A DNA stretch of 64,000 nt, from NCBI RefSeq assembly GCF_016903815.1, contig NZ_CP069973.1. One strand, 5' to 3'. The number at the start of each line of letters is the position of its first letter. Within the stretch, counting starts at the first letter, position 1. The DNA is from Escherichia coli. Its GTDB lineage: Bacteria; Pseudomonadota; Gammaproteobacteria; Enterobacterales; Enterobacteriaceae. Position numbers and translations under genes: made by a program. The notes beneath the pieces were generated by a model that was not told the DNA's origin, did not search any database, and saw nothing but the letters and a program-made list of their open reading frames with translations. Shown here in pieces: positions 2,211 to 63,651 of this stretch.

Positions 2211-3299
2211 CTACTGCGCGGTGGTAATAAATGACTGTAATTGGGCTTCGGTTTGCAAACGTTGCTGCAAGGTACTGGCTTCGGCTTTGCTGGCGAATGG
2301 GCCAAGCTGGATCCGCCAGACTGCGCCATTTTGAGTTACGCGACCGGGGACGCCGAACTTCTGTCCCAGTTGCTGTTGGTACTGTTGCGCACGAGCCTGA
2401 TCGCTAACGGCTCCGACTTGCACCATAAAGTTGCCGCTGGCGCTTTGCGAGGTGGCTTGCGGTGTCACCATTGCAGGCGTGGTTGCAGGCGTTGTCGCCG
2501 GAGCTGTAACAACGGGCTGTGGTGCAGGTGTTGGTTCGCTGCCTTCCAGAACACCAGGCGCTAAGGTCGTTGGTGCGCCGAGGAAACCGCTGCTGGTTAC
2601 CGGCGCGCCGGTCGGATCTTCGCTTTTTAGCGTCGAATTACTGACCGGAAGAATGTCACCCTGCGGGCCAGACACTGAATTTGTTCCCGCGCCGCCGCTT
2701 AAATCGGGAGGTGCAGGCAGGGCGTAAGTCTGTTTGGCAACTGTGGTACAGGCCATACCAGGACCAGAAAGCGAACCATCCTGGGCGACAATAATCGGAT
2801 CGATACGAACTTTGGTGTTGTTTGACGTGTTAAGACGGTCAGCTGCCGCGCGAGAAAGCGAAATAACGCGGTCGTTGCCGTAAGGACCGCGATCATTAAT
2901 GCGCACCACGATCATTCGCCCGTTAGCCAGGTTAGTGATTCTGGCGTAGCTGGGGATCGGAAGCGTTGGATGGGCCGCTGTCAGCTGTGTCGGATCGAAT
3001 GCTTCGCCAGAGGCCGTCAGGTTACTGCCGGGTTCGGCATCATAGATTGCCGCCAGTCCCGCCTGGCTAAATCGAGACGGATCCTGCACGATTTTGTAGC
3101 TTTTACCGTCGCGCTGGTAATCCTGATTTGCCGTCGCGTTCAGTGGTTCGAAACGCGGGTCCGCCCCGCTAATTTCAACTATGGGGCCGTTACATACCGC
3201 AGGCTGCGGTACACTTACCGTCTGTTGCTGACCATCATCGCTTGTACATGCCGCGAGCATTCCTGCCGCGATGCAGATCCCGAGCCACTGCTTACGCAT
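2211..3299 (-). CDS. rlpA: Septal ring lytic transglycosylase/lipoprotein RlpA (362 aa)
   Basis: Lipobox (LAACTS), Pro/Thr/Ala-rich linker and C-terminal SPOR-like region; synteny downstream of mrdB. Confidence 0.85.
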   Translation of the reverse strand: MRKQWLGICIAAGMLAACTSDDGQQQTVSVPQPAVCNGPIVEISGADPRFEPLNATANQDYQRDGKSYKIVQDPSRFSQAGLAAIYDAEPGSNLTASGEAFDPTQLTAAHPTLPIPSYARITNLANGRMIVVRINDRGPYGNDRVISLSRAAADRLNTSNNTKVRIDPIIVAQDGSLSGPGMACTTVAKQTYALPAPPDLSGGAGTNSVSGPQGDILPVSNSTLKSEDPTGAPVTSSGFLGAPTTLAPGVLEGSEPTPAPQPVVTAPATTPATTPAMVTPQATSQSASGNFMVQVGAVSDQARAQQYQQQLGQKFGVPGRVTQNGAVWRIQLGPFASKAEASTLQQRLQTEAQLQSFITTAQ

Positions 3300-3309
3300 T
3301 GCGCACCTC

Positions 3310-4422
3310 TTACACGCTTTTCGACAACATTTTCCTGTGGGTGTGGATTGACATTACAATCCCGAACCCAGCCATCAGCACAATTAGCGCCGATCCTCCA
3401 TAACTGACCAGTGGGAGCGGAACCCCTACAACCGGCAGAATACCGCTTACCATACCAATATTTACGAAGACATAAACGAATAATATCAGCATTAAGCCGC
3501 CAGCCATGACGCGACCAAAGGTGGTTTGCGCTCTGGCGGCTATCCACAGCCCGCGCATGATCAGCAGAATGTAGAGAGCGAGCAGAATCAAAATGCCCAC
3601 TAATCCCAGCTCTTCCGCCAGTACCGCGAAGATAAAGTCGGTATGGCGTTCGGGGAGAAATTCAAGTTGTGACTGAGTGCCATGCAGCCAGCCTTTGCCG
3701 CGTAATCCGCCGGAGCCAATAGCAATTTTAGACTGAATAATGTGATAGCCCGCGCCGAGTGGGTCTGATTCCGGGTCCAGGAGCATCATTACGCGCTGGC
3801 GCTGGTAATCATGCATCAGGAAGAACCACAGAATCGGAATGAACGCCGCTACCAGCACTACTGCGACGCCAATCAGACGCCAGCTAAGGCCAGAGAGGAA
3901 CAGTACAAACAGACCGGAAAGCGCAACGAGGATTGATGTCCCCAGGTCAGGCTGTGCAGCCACCAGCAGCGTGGGCATAAATATCAGCACTAGCGCGATG
4001 CCAGTGTTCTTCAACGATGGCGGGCAAACGTCGCGGTTGATAAAGCGCGCAACCATCAGTGGTACGGCTATTTTGGCAATTTCCGACGGCTGAAAACGAA
4101 CAATACCGAGGTCCAGCCAGCGTTGAGCGCCTTTAGAGATGGCACCGAAAGCATCTACCGCCACCAGCAAAATAATACAGATGATATAGAGATAGGGGGC
4201 CCAGCCTTCATAAACGCGTGGAGGAATTTGCGCCATCACCACCATGATGACCAGACCCATCGCGATTTGGCCGATTTTACGCTCCATCATGCCAATATCC
4301 TGACCGCTGGCGCTCCAGATAACCAGGGCGCTGTAAACCAGCAATGCCAGTAAGATCAGCAGCATTGTGGGATCGAGATGGACTTTATCCCAGAATGTTT
4401 TTTTATTCGGATTATCCGTCAT
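3310..4422 (-). CDS. mrdB: Peptidoglycan glycosyltransferase RodA (SEDS family, 370 aa)
   Basis: Polytopic membrane protein of 370 aa, translationally adjacent to mrdA. Confidence 0.9.
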
Positions 4423-4424
4423 GA

Positions 4425-6326
4425 TTAATGGTCCTCCGCTGCGGCAACCGCTGGATTTTCCGCAGGCAGATCGGTGTTGTTATCACCCAGCATAATGTGG
4501 TCGAGGATCTGGCGCATCAGCGTACCAACCGCCGGACCCGCACCGCCGTTCTCCAGAATCATGGCGACAGCGACTTGCGGATTGTTGTATGGCGCAAAGG
4601 CGGTCATCAGTTTGTGGTCACGTAAACGCTCGGCAATTTTGTGCGCATTATAGGTTTCGTTCGCTTTCAGACCGAAGACCTGAGCGGTACCGGATTTCGC
4701 CGCAATTTTGTACGGTGCGCTGGCAAAGTATTTATGCGCCGTACCGTTAGGGCGGTTAGCAACACCGTACATACCGTCTTTCGCCAGCTCCCAGTAACCG
4801 GAATGAATATCGCCGACGGGCGGTTCATGCGGTTGTACCCATGGCACCTGTTTGCCGTCTTCGGCGGTGCTCATCAGCAAATGCGGAACCTTCACGATAC
4901 CGTCATTAATCAGGATCATCAGTGCCTTACTCATCTGGATTGGGGTCGCTGTCCAGTAACCCTGACCGATACCAACCGGAATGGTGTCACCCTGATACCA
5001 CGGTTTTTTAAAGCGTTTCTGTTTCCATTCGCGGGTAGGCATGTTGCCGGAACGTTCTTCCGCCAGGTCGATACCGGTGTAATGACCATAACCGAATTTA
5101 CCCATCCATTCGGAGAGGCGATCGATTCCCATATCGTAGGCCACCTGATAGAAGAAGGTATCCGCAGATTCTTCCAGCGATCTTGTGACATTCAGACGCC
5201 CGTGGCCCCATTTTTTCCAGTCACGATAACGTTTTTCCGAACCTGGCAGTTGCCACCAGCCTGGGTCAAACAGCGTCGTATTGCGCGTGATCACTCCGGC
5301 GCTCAATGCCGAAACCGCCACATAGGGTTTAACTGTAGACGCGGGAGGATAAACCCCCTGTGTAGCGCGGTTCACCAGCGGTGTATTCGGGTCGTTCAGC
5401 AAGGCGGAATAATCTTTGCTGGAGATACCGTCAACAAACAGGTTTGGGTCATAACTAGGCGTGGAAACCAGCGCCAGCACCCCACCTGTACGCGGATCGG
5501 TGACTACCACCGCTGCGCGGCTACCCGCCAGCAGCGTTTCAATATATTGCTGGAGTTTGAGATCCAGCGTCAGGTAAATATCGTGTCCGGCTTGCGGTGG
5601 GACTTCTTTTAACTGGCGGATAACACGCCCACGGTTGTTAACTTCAACCTCTTCATAACCGGTCTGACCGTGCAGCACGTCTTCATAGTAACGCTCAATG
5701 CCCAGCTTACCGATATCATGCGTTGCCGCATAGTTGGCCAGTTTGCCGTCATTATTCAGGCGTTCGACGTCTTTATCGTTGATTTTCGACACATAGCCGA
5801 TGACGTGGGTCAACGCCGAACCGTAAGGATAGTAACGACGTTTATAGCCTTTAACTTCAACACCCGGAAAACGGTACTGATTGACGGCAAAGCGAGCTAC
5901 TTGTACTTCGGTCAGGTTAGTTTTCACCGGAATGGAGGTGAAACGGTGTGAACGTGCGCGCTCTTTTCGGAATGCAGCAATATCGTCATCGGTCAGATCA
6001 ACCACGCTGCGCAAAGCGTCCAGCGTTTGCTGCACGTTATCGACTTTCTCCGGCATCATTTCTATCTGGTAGATAGTGCGGTTGAGGGCCAGAGGGATAC
6101 CGTTACGGTCGTAGATAATGCCGCGGCTGGGCGCGATAGGCACCAGCTTAATGCGGTTTTCATTAGAGCGGGTCTGGTAGTCGGTAAAGCGAACAATTTG
6201 CAGATTATACAGGTTGGCGATAAGCACGCCGGTCAGCAGCAAAATCCCCAAAAAGGCGACCAGCGCCCGGCGCACAAACAGCGCGGACTCTGCCGTATAG
6301 TCGCGAAAAGAGTTCTGTAGTTTCAT
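4425..6326 (-). CDS. mrdA: Peptidoglycan D,D-transpeptidase PBP2 (633 aa)
   Basis: 633 aa with N-terminal TM segment and transpeptidase STVK-type motif; synteny. Confidence 0.9.
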
Positions 6327-6356: not shown

Positions 6357-6824
6357 TCACTCACGGTGATAAGGATGGTTGGTGGTGATGCTCCACGCCC
6401 GGTACAGACTCTCTGCGACCAGCACGCGAACCAACGGATGGGGGAGGGTAAGCGCCGACAGCGACCAGCTCTGCTCCGCCGCCGCTTTACAGGCAGGCGA
6501 CAACCCTTCAGGCCCGCCAATCAGTAGACTGACGTCGCGACCATCCAGCTTCCAGCGTTCCAGCTCAGCGGCTAACTGCGGCGTATCCCAGGGCTTGCCT
6601 GGAATATCGAGGGTGACAATGCGGTTTTTGCCTGCGGCCGCCAACATCTGCTCACCCTCTTTGTCGAGTATGCGCTTGATGTCCGCATTCTTGCCGCGTT
6701 TTCCGGCCGGAATTTCAATCAGCTCGAAGGGCATATCTTTCGGAAAACGACGCAGGTACTCGGTAAAACCGGTTTGTACCCAGTCCGGCATTTTCGTTCC
6801 CACGGCGACAAGTTGCAGCTTCAC
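6357..6824 (-). CDS. rlmH: 23S rRNA (pseudouridine1915-N3)-methyltransferase RlmH (155 aa)
   Basis: 155 aa SPOUT-family sequence; synteny. Confidence 0.88.
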
Positions 6825-6827
6825 GCA

Positions 6828-7163
<336 letters not shown>

Positions 7164-7404
7164 TCAAATAGATAAAAATGGTCTGTCAGTATACCTGAAC
7201 CAGAGGCGATTTCGGGACAATTGTCGCCGAATCGGCTTTCGAAAGTGGGCTATCATCCCACCCCGCGCCGCAGATTGCATCGTCATTTTTGTAAAACAAT
7301 TTCTACAAAGTCGTGTCTGGCGAAAAAAGTCTGGCTGCGGAGAATATCAGCCTGCCCGGGGCTGTCAATGGTCGTTGCGGCTTACCCGTAAAAAAACAGA
7401 AAAG

Positions 7405-8016
7405 TCATGCATTCTCGACCCCGATGGCACGGCTATTGAGGACGCGTAGCGTCGCGAATTTTTGGTTGATATCAATGGCGCTCCAACACCCCTGGTCAAC
7501 GCGAAAATGCCACATAGCTTCGGCAGGCATACCAATTAAACGGGCGATTAACAGACTCAGTACACCCTGATGGCTGACGACTAAAATATTCTGATAGTGC
7601 TGAAATTCACTAAGCCTTGCGATAAACCGTTCCACACGTTGTGAAAATGCCTGAAATCCTTCACCGTTCGTGGGGATAGCATGCTGCCAGTCATTGCACC
7701 ACGCGCTATAGTTTTCGGCATCTTCTTGCATGAGGTCGCGATGATGTCGCATCTCCCAGTCGCCAAAAAACATTTCGTTGAGTTCAGGGATGATTTGCAC
7801 GGGGAGCTGGCGATCACTGAGAACCCGTCGCGCGGTATGCTGTGCCCGTTCCAGTTCACTGCATAAAACCAGGTCAAAGGAAACACCATGTAGCAGCGTA
7901 TGCAGATTTTGCGCTTGCTCAATACCGCGCGCAGTCAGGGGGGTGGGCGCATGACCGCTGTAAAGACCATCGATATTCGCTTGCGTTTCATCATGACGAA
8001 TTAACCACAGTCGCAT
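7405..8016 (-). CDS. cobC: Adenosylcobalamin/alpha-ribazole phosphatase CobC (PhpB); start taken at the second Met of the track ORF
   Basis: Histidine phosphatase RHG motif (MRLWLIRHDETQ...); the track ORF begins one codon earlier, at 8019. Confidence 0.8.
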   Translation of the reverse strand: MRLWLIRHDETQANIDGLYSGHAPTPLTARGIEQAQNLHTLLHGVSFDLVLCSELERAQHTARRVLSDRQLPVQIIPELNEMFFGDWEMRHHRDLMQEDAENYSAWCNDWQHAIPTNGEGFQAFSQRVERFIARLSEFQHYQNILVVSHQGVLSLLIARLIGMPAEAMWHFRVDQGCWSAIDINQKFATLRVLNSRAIGVENA

Positions 8017-8039
8017 CATGCCCTCCGTAACGACAGGTA

Positions 8040-8681
8040 TCAGCGATACAAGCCTTGTTGGTTAATGTAAGTCAGTACCGGTTCCGGCAATAAATCCTCA
8101 CACGATTCACCGTTTTGCAAACGTTCGCGGATGATGGTCGCCGAGATGTTAAACCACGGCGTTTCAGCCAGATAAATTTTACCGGCAGGCTGAAGGTGAA
8201 GATCTTCCGGGTTATGTGTCAAATGATCTTCCAGCCATTGCTGGTATTGCGGTTGCGCCATTTCAAGTGGGTAACCTGGACGCCGACAGACGATCAAATG
8301 TGCATTGTCGAGTATCGTTTCGTATTCGTACCAGGTCGGAAAGGTCAGCAGTGAATCCTGACCTATAATAAACGCCAGCGGCACGTCCGGCCCTTGTTCC
8401 TGCCGCCACTCTTTCAGTGTTTGCGCAGTGTAAGAGGGGGCATTGCGCTTTAGCTCGCGTTCATCAAGAGTAAATAATGGCTTGTCGGCAATCGCCAGTT
8501 CAAGCATGTGTTTACGCTGCACGCTGTTCGCTTCCGGCTGGGGACGATGCGGAGGAACATTATTAGGGATGATTGTGACCCGCGTCAGACCAATCAAATT
8601 CGCCAGCGTTTCCACGGGTTTAAGATGACCATAGTGCACCGGATCAAAGGTGCCGCCAAACAGAGCCTGTAAAGATTTCAT
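8040..8681 (-). CDS. nadD: Nicotinate-nucleotide adenylyltransferase NadD (213 aa)
   Basis: [11 protein letters not shown] nucleotidyltransferase motif near the N-terminus. Confidence 0.9.
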
Positions 8682-57410: not shown

Positions 57411-60400
57411 ATGAGTGGAAAACCGGCGGCGCGTCAGGGCGACATGACGCAGTATGGCGGTAGCATTGTCCAGGGTTCAGCCGGGGTGCGCATCGGTGCC
57501 CCCACCGGCGTGGCCTGTTCGGTGTGCCCCGGCGGGGTGACGTCCGGCCATCCGGTCAATCCGCTGCTCGGCGCGAAGGTCCTTCCCGGAGAAACCGACC
57601 TTGCCCTGCCCGGCCCGCTGCCGTTCATCCTCTCCCGCACCTACAGCAGTTACCGGACAAAAACGCCCGCGCCGGTGGGGAGCCTCGGCCCCGGCTGGAA
57701 AATGCCTGCGGATATCCGCTTACAGCTGCGCGATAACACACTGATACTCAGTGATAACGGCGGCAGAAGCCTGTATTTTGAGCACCTGTTTCCCGGTGAG
57801 GACGGTTACAGCCGCAGCGAGTCACTCTGGCTGGTGCGCGGCGGTGTCCTGAAACTGGATGAAGGTCACCGGCTGGCCGCACTCTGGCAGGCGCTGCCGG
57901 AAGAACTCCGCTTAAGTCCGCATCGTTATCTGGCGACGAACAGTCCGCAGGGGCCGTGGTGGGTACTCGGCTGGTGTGAGCGGGTGCCGGAGGCGGATGA
58001 GGTGCTGCCTGCGCCGCTGCCGCCGTACCGGGTACTGACCGGGCTGGTGGACCGCTTCGGGCGCACACAGACGTTCCACCGTGAGGCTGGCGGCGAAATC
58101 ACCGGCGTGACGGATGGTGCCGGGCGTCACTTCCGGCTGGTACTGACCACGCAGGCGCAGCGGGCAGAAGAAGCCCGGCAGCAGGCCTCTTCCGGCGGGA
58201 CGGAACCGTCCGCTTTTCCTGATACCCTGCCGGGTTACACCGAATATGGCCGGGACAACGGCATCCGTCTGTCTGCCGTGTGGCTGACGCACGACCCGGA
58301 ATACCCGGAGAATTTACCTGCCGCGCCGCTGGTGCGCTATGGCTGGACGCCACGCGGCGAACTGGCGGCGGTGTATGACCGCAGCAATACACAGGTGCGC
58401 AGCTTTACTTACGATGATAAATACCGGGGCCGGATGGTGGCGCACCGTCACACGGGCCGGCCGGAAATCCGTTACCGTTACGACAGCGACGGGCGGGTGA
58501 CAGAACAGCTAAACCCGGCAGGCTTAAGCTACACGTATCAGTATGAGAAAGACCGCATCACCATCACCGACAGTATGGACCGCCGTGAAGTGCTGCACAC
58601 GCAGGGCGAAGGCGGGCTGAAGCGGGTGGTGAAAAAGGAACACGCGGACGGCAGCGTCACGCAGAGTCAGTTTGATGCGGTGGGCAGGCTTAAGGCACAG
58701 ACGGATGCCGCAGGCCGGACGACTGAGTACAGCCCGGATGTGGTGACGGGACTCATCACGCGCATCACCACACCGGATGGCAGGGCATCGGCATTTTACT
58801 ATAACCACCACAACCAGTTAACGTCAGCCACCGGGCCTGACGGGCTGGAAATACGCCGGGAATATGATGAATCCGGCCGTCTGATTCAGGAAACCGCACA
58901 CAACGGCGATATCACCCGCTACCGTTATGATAATCCACACAGTGACTTACCCTGCGCAACGGAAGATGCCACCGGCAGCCGGAAAACCATGACATGGAGC
59001 CGTTACGGTCAGTTGCTGACCGTCACTGACTGTTCCGGTTATGTAACCCGTTATGACCATGACCGTTTTGGTCAGGTGACGGCGGTGCACCGCGAGGAAG
59101 GGCTGAGTCAGTACCGCGCATACGACAGCCGTGGACAGTTAATTGCGGTGAAAGACACGCAGGGCCATGAAACGCGGTATGAATACAACGCCGCCGGTGA
59201 CCTGACCGCCGTCATTGCCCCGGACGGCAGCAGAAACGGGACACAGTACGATGCGTGGGGAAAGGCCATCCGTACCACACAGGGCGGTCTGACGCGCAGT
59301 ATGGAATACGATGCTGCCGGACGGGTCATCCGCCTGACCAGTGAAAACGGCAGCCACACCACCTTCCGTTACGATGTACTCGACCGGCTGATACAGGAAA
59401 CCGGCTTTGACGGCCGCACACAGCGTTATCACCACGACCTGACCGGCAAACTTATCCGCAGCGAGGATGAGGGGCTGGTCACCCACTGGCACTATGACGA
59501 AGCAGACCGCATCACACAGCGAACGGTGAATGGTGAAACCGCAGAACAGTGGCGGTACGACGAACGCGGCTGGCTGACACAAATCAGCCATCTCAGCGAA
59601 GGCCACCGGGTGACGGTGCATTACGGGTATGATGAGAAAGGCCGCCTGACCGGTGAGCGCCAGACGGTGCATCACCCGCAGACGGAAGCACTGCTCTGGC
59701 AGCATGAAACCAGACACGCTTACAACGCGCAGGGACTGGCGAACCGCTGTATACCGGACAGCCTGCCCGCCGTGGAATGGCTGACTTACGGCAGCGGCTG
59801 GCTGGCAGGCATGAAACTCGGCGACACACCGCTGGTGGATTTCACCCGCGACCGCCTGCACCGGGAAACGCTGCGCAGCTTCGGCCGTTATGAACTCACC
59901 ACCGCTTATACCTCTGCCGGGCAGTTACAGAGCCAGCACCTGAACAGCCTGCAGTATGACCGCGATTACACCTGGAACGACAACGGCGAACTCATCCGCA
60001 TCAGCAGCCCGCGCCAGACCCGGAGTTACAGCTACAGCGACACCGGCAGGCTGACCGGCGTCCACACCACGGCAGCGAACCTTGATATCCGCATCCCGTA
60101 TGCCACGGACCCGGCGGGCAACCGCCTGCCCGACCCGGAGCTGCACCCGGACAGCCCCCTCAGCGCATGGCCGGATAACCGTATCGCCCGTGACGCGCAC
60201 TATCTTTACCGGTATGACCGTCACGGCAGGCTGACGGAGAAAACCGACCTCATCCCGGAAGGGGTTATCCGCACGGATGATGAGCGGACTCACCGGTACC
60301 ATTACGACAGCCGGCACCGGCTGGTGCACTACACGCGGACACAATATGCAGAGCCGCTGGTCGAAAGTCGCTATCTTTACGACCTGCTGGGCCGCAGGGT

Positions 60401-61550
60401 GGCAAAACGGGTATGGCGGCGTGAACGGGACCTGACGGGCTGGATGTCGCTGTCATGGAAACCGGAAGTGCCCTGGTACGGCTGGGACGGCGACCGGCTG
60501 ACCACAATACAGAACGACAGAACCCGCATCCAGACGGTTTATCAGCCGGGGAGCTTCACGCCACTCATCAGAGTTGAAACTGCCACCGGTGAGCTGGCGA
60601 AAACGCAGCGCCGCAGCCTGGCGGATGCGCTTCAGCAGTCCGGCGGTGAAGACGGTGGCAGTGTGGTGTTCCCGCCGGTGCTGGTGCAGATGCTCGACCG
60701 GCTGGAAAGTGAAATCCTGGCTGACCGGGTGAGTGAGGAAAGCCGCCGCTGGCTGGCATCGTGCGGCCTGACGGTGGAGCAGATACAAAACCAGATGGAC
60801 CCGGTGTACACGCCGGCGCGAAAAATCCACCTGTACCACTGCGACCATCGCGGCCTGCCGCTGGCGCTTGTCAGCACGGAAGGGGCAACAGAATGGTGCG
60901 CAGAATACGATGAATGGGGCAACCTGCTGAATGAAGAGAACCCGCATCAGCTGCAGCAGCTCATCCGCCTGCCGGGTCAGCAGTATGATGAGGAGTCCGG
61001 CCTGTATTACAACCGCCACCGCTATTATGACCCGCTGAAGGGGCGGTATATCACTCAGGATCCGATTGGACTGAAGGGGGGATGGAATTTTTATCAGTAT
61101 CCGTTAAATCCGATCTCAGAGATAGACCCACAAGGGTTAAATCCGTTAATTCTTAGTGTTGTAGCACTGATGAGTTGCGGTTTGTTTTCATCAGGTGGTG
61201 TTATCCAAAGTGGGCAACAACGCAGAGATCAATATGGCCGTAAAGTTAATCCAGAAGCCGACAAATTAACAGATGAACATAAGTCAGGTGTAAATCCTGG
61301 TGGTAACTGTAGTCCCCAGAACCTGAGTGACTTACAAAATGAAAAAAACAGATTATGTAACCAGTCTAGAGCTTGCGCTCCTCAGATGCTGAGAAAAGAA
61401 ATATTGAGACGGTACGAGATAAATTTGGCGTGCGCTTCGGTCAGAAAGCAGATTAATAATCAGTGCTTTGGTGGTGGAGATAAGGCCCATATGGAAGAAG
61501 AGAATAAAGCATATAAAACAGCAGCTGATTGCAGTGGCTTAATAAAATGA
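57411..61550 (+). CDS. rhsC: PAAR-domain RHS-repeat polymorphic toxin (RhsC-type, 1379 aa) with a variable low-GC C-terminal toxin tip
   Basis: N-terminal PAAR-like segment ([11 protein letters not shown]...), many YD/RHS repeats ([27 protein letters not shown] and others), core-end motif PxxxxDPxGL (DPIGLKGG...EIDPQGL) at about 61080–61140, then an AT-rich Cys-rich tip of roughly 135 aa. Confidence 0.9.
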
Positions 61551-62050
61551 AAAAAATAATTTTCTCTAACGAGAGTGCAGTCTATGATGAACTTATGATT
61601 CATTTCCCATGCCAGCCATTACCTCATATTTCAAATGATATTACAGGGCTGGAGGAACTGGATATTGTATATAATTTTTTCCAAAAGAAACAATGGAATG
61701 AAATAGCCAACAATTTTAAAATAAAGGATGACTCTTATGCTTTAGAGTTAGGAATTACATTCCTCCCTGAGAAAGTATTCTGCTATTACATCCCTCTGTA
61801 TATTTATGCCTCGTTGTTTAATAAGAATGATTTTTGGGTTTTTGAATCCGATTTTATTCAACAATATTTATGTCCTGAGTATCGGGATCACGATGATTTT
61901 TTGAATTTTGTTTTTAATTTTTCAGATATACAACTATCTATTATTGCACAGTTTATGTCTTATGAATCAGACGCTGGATTCTTTTATGCAAGTAAAGCTT
62001 GTATGGATTTTTGGGAAGATTATTCACCTCTATTACATAAGAAAATTTAA
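61547..62050 (+). CDS. Putative cognate immunity protein for the RhsC C-terminal toxin (167 aa from [10 protein letters not shown]); no family I recognise
   Basis: Start overlaps the rhsC stop (ATGA); strongly AT-rich like the toxin tip; position is canonical for Rhs immunity genes; the track ORF starts 6 codons upstream. Confidence 0.6.
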
Positions 62051-62102: not shown

Positions 62103-62720
62103 ATGAAAAATAAGATGACGTTGGCATATAGATCACTGCGAATAATCCACCTCTACCACTGCGACTATCGCGGCCTGCCGCTGACGCTTATCAGCCCTGA
62201 CGGGGCAACAGAATGGTGCGCAGAATATGATGAATGGGGCAACCTGCTGACTGAAGAGAACCCGCAGCACCTGCAGCAGCTTATCCGTCTGCCGGGGCAG
62301 CAGTATGATGAGGAGTCCGGCCTGTATTACAACCGCCACCGCTATTATGACCCGCTGCAGGGGCGGTGTATCACTCAGGATCCGATTGGGCTGGAAGGCG
62401 GGTGGAATCAGTATGTATATGCTTCCATACATCCAACCTATTCTATTGATCCGCTGGGCTTAATTGATAAACCTGCTCCAGTATTCAATCGAGAACTAAA
62501 TTCAGATGCGTATTATCTTGCCGTAAATAATTGCTATTCATATGCTCTAAATAGGTATGGAAATCCTGGGAGTAGGATTTTTGGCGGCGGAGGATTACAA
62601 CCTGGAGAATTATCTGGAAAAGAGTTTTCTAAACTCACTTGTAGTAGTATTTTTGAAGCGTCAAAAAATGATGGTGCCAAGGACAGGGAAAGATCATCAG
62701 AAGTACACTTTTTGTACTAA
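62103..62720 (+). CDS. Orphan Rhs C-terminal module: conserved core end ([10 protein letters not shown]...DPIGLEGG...DPLGL) plus a distinct short toxin tip of about 85 aa; possibly truncated or pseudogenic
   Basis: About 90% nucleotide identity to the rhsC core end over roughly 260 bp, followed by unrelated AT-rich sequence; lacks the Rhs N-terminus. Confidence 0.65.
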
Positions 62721-62827: not shown

Positions 62828-63651
62828 ATGGAACTTAAAAAATTGATGGAACATATTTCTATTATCCCCGATTACAGACAAGCCTGGAAAGTGGAACATA
62901 AATTGTCGGATATTCTACTGTTGACTATTTGTGCCGTTATTTCTGGTGCAGAAGGCTGGGAAGATATAGAGGATTTTGGGGAAACACATCTCGATTTTTT
63001 GAAGCAATATGGTGATTTTGAAAATGGTATTCCTGTTCACGATACCATTGCCAGAGTTGTATCCTGTATCAGTCCTGCAAAATTTCACGAGTGCTTTATT
63101 AACTGGATGCGTGACTGCCATTCTTCAGATGATAAAGGCGTCATTGCAATTGATGGAAAAACGCTCCGGCACTCTTATGACTAGAGTCGCCGCAGGGGAG
63201 CGATTCATGTCATTAGTTCGTTCTCAACAATGCACAGTCTGGTCATCGGACAGATCAGGACGGATGAGAAATCCAATGAAATTACAGCTATCCCTGAACT
63301 TCTTAACATGTTGGATATTAAAGGAAAAATTATCACAACTGATGCGATGGGTTGCCAGAAAGATATCGCAGAGAAGATACAAAAACAGGGCGGTGATTAT
63401 TTATTCGCTGTAAAAGGAAACCAGGGGCGGCTAAATAAAGCCTTTGAGGAAAAGTTTCCGCTGAAAGAATTAAATAATCCAGAGCATGGCAGTTACGCAA
63501 TGAGTGAAAAGAGTCACGGCAGAGAAGAAATCCGTCTTCACATTGTTTGCGATGTCCCTGATGAACTTATTGATTTCACGTTTGAATGGAAAGGGCAGCC
63601 ATGGACAGAAACTACCTGACGTCAGTCCTTGCGGGGAGCGGGCTTTCGTAA
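62828..63651 (+). pseudogene. H-repeat-associated (ISAs1-family) transposase remnant with an in-frame TAG and an internal deletion
   Basis: Two track ORFs (62828..63184, 63230..63619) lie in the same frame, separated by TAG at 63182; recalled intact homologs have Lys there. The body ends at ...[11 protein letters not shown] and the conserved C-terminal peptide [16 protein letters not shown] reappears out of frame at 63601..63651. Confidence 0.75.

Follow-up and report, generated by a model that had tools for sequence, protein, structure and literature searches.

The window analyzed here, a 64,000-nucleotide stretch of Escherichia coli DNA (contig NZ_CP069973.1 of RefSeq assembly GCF_016903815.1), carries near its end the gene rhsC, whose product we read as an Rhs polymorphic toxin with an Ntox16 tip that is neutralized by a DUF6714 immunity protein encoded in an overlapping gene; we put the probability of this reading as a whole at about 0.8. 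The YD-repeat shell of RhsC would end in a double DPxGL aspartyl-protease motif that should free the last 136 residues, and the freed piece would comprise a transmembrane-like hydrophobic linker followed by an Ntox16 domain of ~105 residues, predicted to be a basic four-helix bundle with six invariant cysteines. R102 together with the [DN]114-x-x-H117 motif probably forms its active site. The acidic, all-α DUF6714 protein, predicted to be cytoplasmic, would be co-translated with the toxin and presumably neutralizes it by binding. From what is known of Rhs effectors, we infer that the shell encloses the tip until autoproteolysis frees it, that delivery is by a type VI secretion system (T6SS) and that sister cells are protected. 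The features concerned, all on the + strand, are as follows.

57411..61550 (+): rhsC, full-length Rhs polymorphic toxin gene, 1379 amino acids plus TGA (single open reading frame, ORF; RHS_core match)
61059..61139 (+): double DPxGL motif, C-terminal aspartyl-protease autocleavage signature (read from the sequence)
61140..61220 (+): tip residues 1-27, hydrophobic, transmembrane-like, poorly conserved linker (hydropathy; AlphaFold2 predicted local distance difference test, pLDDT, 56-74)
61221..61547 (+): tip residues 28-136, Ntox16 toxin domain with conserved N-terminal extension (Pfam, AlphaFold2, homologues)
61464..61490 (+): most conserved motif, C109-F-G-G-G-D114-K-A-H117, loop and first turn before helix 4
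61547..61550 (+): ATGA overlap of immunity start codon and rhsC stop codon (read from the sequence)
61547..62050 (+): predicted cognate immunity gene, 167 amino acids, DUF6714, acidic, no signal peptide (Pfam, conserved position)

The Rhs shell and its Ntox16 tip

RefSeq names the rhsC product 'RHS element core protein' (WP_048219329.1). Residues 1-1243 match the NCBIfam model NF041261 (RHS_core) with 2606 bits (cutoff, 2000), and TIGR01643 and TIGR03696 also match, which identifies a YD-repeat/RHS core; DUF6531 occupies residues 46-123. The RHS_core match ends exactly at the leucine of DPQGL (61125-61139), the second half of the double motif, which is separated by a spacer of 17 residues from DPIGL (61059-61073). 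Experiments on Rhs1 of Photorhabdus laumondii identified two DPxGL elements 17 residues apart as an aspartyl-protease site, with cleavage right after the second (PMC8636562). By analogy, the cut in RhsC is predicted after L1243, that is, after base 61139. Because cleavage would fall directly after the second DPxGL, we delimit the tip as 61140-61547. Its 136 amino acids agree with the ~135 of the original prediction, which had been made from the DNA letters alone and had also pointed to an abrupt change from a GC-rich core to an AT-rich tip after DPIGLKGG...EIDPQGL. The GC content is indeed ~0.61 at 60800-60999 but only ~0.42 in the tip, and the ORF that follows has 0.28-0.34.

The tip begins with the hydrophobic segment noticed earlier (residues 3-22), in which the best 15-residue Kyte-Doolittle window has a mean of 2.29. 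The sequence of the surrounding linker, residues 1-27, differs among close homologues. Behind it, tip residues 54-133 (bases 61299-61538) match Pfam PF15523 (Ntox16, 'Novel toxin 16') with E=1.8e-12 and 47.8 bits over model positions 2-84 of 85, and in close enterobacterial homologues conservation extends upstream of the Pfam model, beginning at D30. Nearly all relatives found from the tip (87 of 91) also match Ntox16, and UniProt labels E. coli and Shigella fragments of the same protein 'Novel toxin 16 domain-containing protein'. The tip had been thought unclassified; given this nearly full-length match, it is by sequence a clear member of Ntox16, a family itself known from sequence analysis alone.

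Zhang et al. (2012) described Ntox16 as a predicted α-helical toxin with R and [DNE]xxH motifs, ranging over cyanobacteria, β-, γ- and δ-proteobacteria and verrucomicrobia, and tied to the type II secretion system (T2SS), T6SS, Photorhabdus virulence cassette (PVC) secretion and RHS repeats (PMC3482391). Both signature elements are present in the tip, as R102 and D114-K-A-H117. The system can thus no longer be called undescribed, as had been proposed, since comparative genomics delineated the family in 2012 and its presence on RHS proteins had already been noted; that polymorphic-toxin catalogue lists no immunity family for it (PMC3482391). A match to a characterized family with a known immunity partner, which would have spoken against a new pair, was not found, Ntox16 having neither a listed partner nor a known activity. 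Searches of NCBIfam and PADLOC returned nothing for either the tip or the immunity protein, and the tip is not mentioned in two survey papers on Rhs proteins.

DUF6714 as the probable immunity partner of Ntox16

The downstream ORF is a hypothetical protein in RefSeq (WP_000720081.1). As the original prediction had it, its 167 codons begin inside the rhsC stop codon, and the ATGA at 61547-61550 suggests translational coupling with rhsC. It matches Pfam PF20461 (DUF6714) with E=3.9e-5 over model positions 65-159 of 161; among 22 relatives, DUF6714 is found in 16 at E<=0.001 and in 19 at E<=0.1. Homologues of both the tip and the downstream protein occur in many genera, which speaks against a chance reading frame.

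We examined the pairing of the two families at 17 other Ntox16 loci (L002-L018). Six were reached via homologous proteins (Rahnella, Enterobacter cloacae, E. quasimori, a Neisseria-like contig and two metagenome contigs) and eleven by scanning a single genome of each species, with loci in Burkholderia, Paraburkholderia, Pseudomonas, Hydrogenophaga, a Hyphomicrobiales metagenome-assembled genome, Neisseria and Cardiobacterium. An immunity hidden Markov model (HMM), built from the enterobacterial homologues and the downstream ORFs of L002-L004, L006 and L007, matches the ORF directly 3' of Ntox16 in 12 of the 17 loci at E<=1e-11. These 12 include all seven α-, β- and γ-proteobacterial loci outside the training set, from Burkholderia, Paraburkholderia, Pseudomonas, Hydrogenophaga and Hyphomicrobiales. 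By sequence comparison, the remaining five loci carry a divergent relative of the immunity protein: two Neisseria loci, identical to each other, give a weak match (1.4e-3 with an HMM that omits them), and three Cardiobacterium partners resemble the Neisseria partner (BLASTP 5e-22), which links them transitively. Precomputed Pfam labels agree at three loci, the Rahnella genome and the metagenome contigs L006 and L007. The toxin-immunity layout proposed for the E. coli genes is thus strongly supported by a pairing of Ntox16 with DUF6714 that is conserved across distant bacteria.

The ATG lies at the same ATGA-type (-3) position in 11 of the 17 loci. A hydrophobic N terminus or signal peptide is found in none of 16 immunity proteins, including the partner of a Sec-exported Cardiobacterium toxin (L017). 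The isoelectric point (pI) of the E. coli immunity protein is 4.5 (median of the immunity proteins, 4.4), and that of the Ntox16 domain of RhsC is 9.0 (family median, 8.3). Because pairing, overlap, lack of an export signal and charge pattern all point the same way when taken together, DUF6714 is most likely the cognate, cytoplasmic immunity family for Ntox16.

Several of the loci have features of their own. At L012 of Pseudomonas entomophila COR5, three extra DUF6714 paralogues lie downstream (5600-6112, 6603-7196 and 7835-8297) in what looks like an orphan immunity array, the usual pattern of immunity genes. Some orphan Ntox16 cassettes contain degraded toxins: L004 of Enterobacter quasimori (4001-4384) lacks the GGDxxH region, and L011 (Paraburkholderia) and L013 (Burkholderia) have lost the N-terminal part. 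The DUF6714 gene is intact in each of the three, which is consistent with immunity genes outliving their toxins. On the metagenome contig L007, two Rhs genes stand in tandem, the first (1-1881) with an AHH nuclease tip and the second (3001-5943) with Ntox16/DUF6714, and are followed by ParDE and MazE-type antitoxin genes.

Binding of the immunity protein to the toxin was modeled with AlphaFold2 as a fused chain, in which a 30-residue Gly/Ser linker joins tip residues 28-136 to the immunity protein, from an alignment of 11 paired plus unpaired rows. Both parts are predicted with pLDDT >90 and the immunity protein is all-α, but the predicted template modeling score (pTM) is only 0.64, without an inter-domain error map, so that the model speaks neither for nor against binding. 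This pTM, and the fact that DUF6714 has no assigned function, would leave room for the downstream ORF to have an accessory role (as a chaperone or adaptor, for example) or to be an unrelated passenger of the cassette. We consider this very improbable. The gene keeps its directly 3' position and start/stop overlap across α-, β- and γ-proteobacteria, and the pairing holds for Rhs carriers, Sec-exported carriers and orphan cassettes alike; the arrayed paralogues at L012 are usual for immunity genes. Moreover, the genes of known T6SS chaperones such as EagR lie upstream of rhs, and these chaperones bind the N-terminal region (PMC8636562).

Conserved residues, predicted fold and site of action

Relatives of the domain were sought among 1.84 billion cluster representatives, of which 274 qualify at E<=0.001. 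The domain ends at most 20 residues from the C terminus in 128 of the 148 representatives examined. Among 91 longer relatives, RHS domains are present in 9-15 and eCIS_core in 3, and many Ntox16 relatives have Sec signal peptides or lipoboxes. A transmembrane-like stretch rich in Gly, Ala, Val and Ile precedes the domain in ~32-44% of relatives; the hydrophobic segment of RhsC is therefore a recurrent but not universal element of the family, and membrane insertion or translocation is one possibility for its role. Two proteins stand out by their architecture: one of 460 amino acids (P0105) has two tandem Ntox16 domains (265-346 and 357-439), and one of 563 amino acids (P0117) contains Toprim domains as well as a partial Ntox16-like stretch.

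Residue conservation was counted in an alignment of 146 Ntox16 domain sequences, using tip numbering, with totals that vary from column to column. Six cysteines are invariant or nearly so across ~145 diverse members: C57 (143/143), C73 (144/145), C79 (146/146), C98 (144/144), C109 (143/144) and C131 (129/129). The original prediction had placed seven cysteines beyond the hydrophobic segment; the tip does contain seven, but C13 sits within that segment and is not conserved, leaving six in the remainder. R102 (bases 61443-61445; 143/144) and H117 (142/144) are almost equally well kept, as are G112 (143/144) and G113 (138/144), and position 114 is D in 121 and N in 21 of 144 sequences. The motif around these residues has the family consensus C-[FY]-x-G-G-[DN]-x-x-H. 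Strong conservation is also seen at G55, L65, Q66 and R77. From C57 to C131, exactly six cysteines are present in 79 of 126 full-coverage sequences and seven in 41. The seventh is always at position 85 (61392-61394 in the window, where E. coli has Arg) and has no covarying partner. An apparent link between Cys85 and Asn114 (9/43 versus 9/83) was too weak to interpret and was dropped.

The AlphaFold2 model of the tip, built from a 67-sequence alignment, has a mean pLDDT of 90, with ~98 for residues 30-136 and 56-74 for residues 1-27. It consists of four helices (38-49, 59-73, 85-109 and 115-135). The GG[DN]xxH motif lies in the loop and first turn before helix 4, with D/N114 at the helix N-cap position. 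Simple helical-wheel arithmetic places N95, C98, R102, N106 and C109 on one face of helix 3, and H117 and C131 on one face of helix 4.

A search of AFDB50 with the tip returned only other Ntox16 proteins. Against the PDB, single-sequence searches gave nothing meaningful (only IpaB at E=0.35) and profile searches gave no match, so the fold, as modeled, is without a specific relative among solved structures and offers no lead to the activity. Four known types of protein were considered and rejected. HEPN-type all-α RNase toxins are small four-helix bundles in which an Arg is conserved, as is a His where helix 4 begins. The tip resembles them in all of these respects, but no conserved Arg stands 4-6 residues before H117, so that it lacks the Rx4-6H motif. 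For secreted phospholipase A2, a helical, disulfide-rich enzyme that uses His/Asp, neither an HD dyad nor a fold match was found. A saposin-like fold has six cysteines, but the spacing of 16-6-19-11-22 in Ntox16 does not fit it. The DxxH...E arrangement of colicin E3 was likewise set aside, as the Glu is not conserved and colicin E3 has a β-rich fold.

Our best guess is that the toxin acts as an enzyme in the target cytoplasm. Action in this compartment is suggested because the immunity proteins are predicted to be cytoplasmic and because of the basic/acidic charge pattern. Since the Arg and His are near-invariant, acid-base catalysis by these residues on RNA, DNA or another phosphate-bearing substrate can be proposed, but only tentatively, and we think it rather less likely than not. 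The cysteines could be structural staples, forming either three disulfides or a metal site. Three disulfides would fit the many Sec-exported relatives, and a metal site would fit cytoplasmic action as well as the seven-cysteine subfamily, whose additional, partnerless cysteine is awkward for a simple three-disulfide model.

The same features raise the alternative that Ntox16 acts in the periplasm or membrane as a DsbA-oxidized, disulfide-dependent toxin anchored by its hydrophobic segment, with DUF6714 serving only to silence it in the cytoplasm of the producer. A set of six invariant or near-invariant cysteines in so small a helical domain, the signal peptides or lipoboxes of many members, and the transmembrane-like stretch found here and in a sizeable share of relatives would all suit such a toxin. 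However, an exported immunity protein is normally needed against periplasm-acting T6SS effectors, and none of the 16 DUF6714 partners has a signal peptide, even where, as in Cardiobacterium L017, the toxin itself is Sec-exported. In addition, the unpaired cysteine at position 85 in about one-third of members fits a purely disulfide-based design poorly, and the combination of a basic toxin with an acidic immunity protein is more usual where the toxin has a cytoplasmic target. We therefore consider a periplasmic or membrane toxin unlikely, and favor an Ntox16 enzyme that acts in the target cytoplasm.

Genomic setting and known systems

The genes at the end of the window are ordered kdpA-kdpF-ybfA-rhsC-...-ybfD-ybgA. 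The 955-bp stretch comprising the tip and the downstream ORF is 100% identical to that of E. coli strain 7/2 and occurs at >=99% identity in 243 of 5426 complete E. coli genomes, in all of them on the chromosome; a search of a plasmid collection gave no match. Related copies are present in Shigella, Salmonella and other Enterobacterales. RefSeq annotates, 3' of the immunity gene, a truncated RHS fragment and then an ISAs1 (ybfD) pseudogene. The fragment is an orphan rhs C terminus, a 205-amino-acid ORF at 62103-62720 (+) that repeats the core end including DPIGL...DPLGL and continues into a different, AT-rich tip with no Pfam or NCBIfam match. It is followed not by an immunity-like ORF but by the ISAs1 (ybfD) transposase pseudogene at 62828-63619, which has an internal stop.

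This setting bears on whether the module is functional in this strain. It might be an inactive relic, a recombined cassette that sits at an rhs locus lacking vgrG and is unexpressed or undelivered: rhsC is located between kdp/ybfA and ybgA, the ~50 kb upstream contain no T6SS genes, the adjoining orphan rhs fragment and ISAs1 element are pseudogenes, the PAAR match is weak, and degraded orphan copies such as L004, L011 and L013 exist among the relatives. Yet both reading frames, the 1379-residue one of rhsC and that of the immunity gene, are intact, as is the cleavage motif, and the toxin has lost none of its conserved residues; identity of at least 99% has been kept in 243 genomes, though this may reflect only recent common ancestry. 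On balance we judge a relic to be improbable, and a working toxin-immunity pair the better account of the locus, in which the T6SS for delivery is probably encoded elsewhere in the genome.

Several points nevertheless weigh against reading RhsC as a T6SS-delivered toxin that is neutralized by DUF6714 and acts in the cytoplasm. With respect to delivery, no T6SS genes are annotated within ~6 kb on either side of rhsC or ~50 kb upstream, and the PAAR motif is matched only at E=0.18. On the side of immunity, the DUF6714 match of the E. coli protein itself is modest, and the fused-chain model is limited by its pTM and missing error map. Six invariant cysteines are unusual for a toxin in a reducing cytoplasm, and the Sec signal peptides and lipoboxes of many relatives would fit a disulfide-bonded, extracytoplasmic action. 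Finally, literature searches for Ntox16, PF15523 and DUF6714 returned no functional or experimental study of either family: they gave only the 2012 catalogue and an unrelated Akkermansia preprint, and the terms PF15523 and DUF6714 were not mentioned in the literature searched. Autocleavage, toxicity and neutralization by binding, like the site of action, are accordingly what we infer for RhsC from Rhs effectors in general.

The cassette itself is an ordinary Rhs toxin-immunity pair whose toxin domain already has a Pfam name. Its interest lies in the fact that Ntox16 is among the 'Ntox' families that have yet to be assigned an activity, and that E. coli, as a tractable organism, offers with this intact and common copy (present in 243 complete genomes) a reasonable experimental entry point; with a very confidently predicted fold, mutagenesis could begin at R102, H117 and the six cysteines. 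One could go further and see in Ntox16/DUF6714 a mechanistically new toxin-immunity class, in which a six-cysteine-stapled four-helix enzyme has a target or chemistry unprecedented among polymorphic toxins and the cysteines might, as a redox or metal switch, prevent its activity before arrival in the target cell. We regard this as doubtful.

Among known systems, MafB/MafI and CdiA-CT/CdiI are Sec-exported polymorphic toxins with cytoplasmic immunity (the 'T2SS' class of Zhang et al., 2012). Other Ntox16 proteins resemble them in that the toxins have signal peptides and their DUF6714 partners do not, which fits re-entry into the cytoplasm of a neighboring cell. In contrast, the carrier in the window is an Rhs protein.

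The carrier has its parallels in T6SS-associated Rhs effectors of solved shell structure, such as Rhs1-Tre23 of Photorhabdus laumondii, which shares with RhsC the YD-repeat shell, the double DPxGL motif with its 17-residue spacer, a shift in composition at the tip and an immunity gene directly downstream (PMC8636562). The toxins themselves are unrelated, Tre23 being an ADP-ribosyltransferase (PMC8636562), and, unlike Rhs1-Tre23, RhsC lacks a clear PAAR domain, and neither vgrG nor eagR adjoins its gene.

For the tip, the reference is Ntox16 as defined in Pfam, with which it agrees in HMM membership, α-helical fold, the R/[DNE]xxH motifs, C-terminal position and RHS association (PMC3482391); nothing in the tip conflicts with the description of 2012. 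That description does not include the six cysteines, the enterobacterial N-terminal extension, the hydrophobic segment before the domain or the DUF6714 partner seen here, and there appears to be no earlier record of the link to DUF6714, of the set of invariant cysteines or of the conserved coupling through ATGA. DUF6714 is thereby given a proposed function, immunity to Ntox16, which would fill a slot left empty in the 2012 catalogue.

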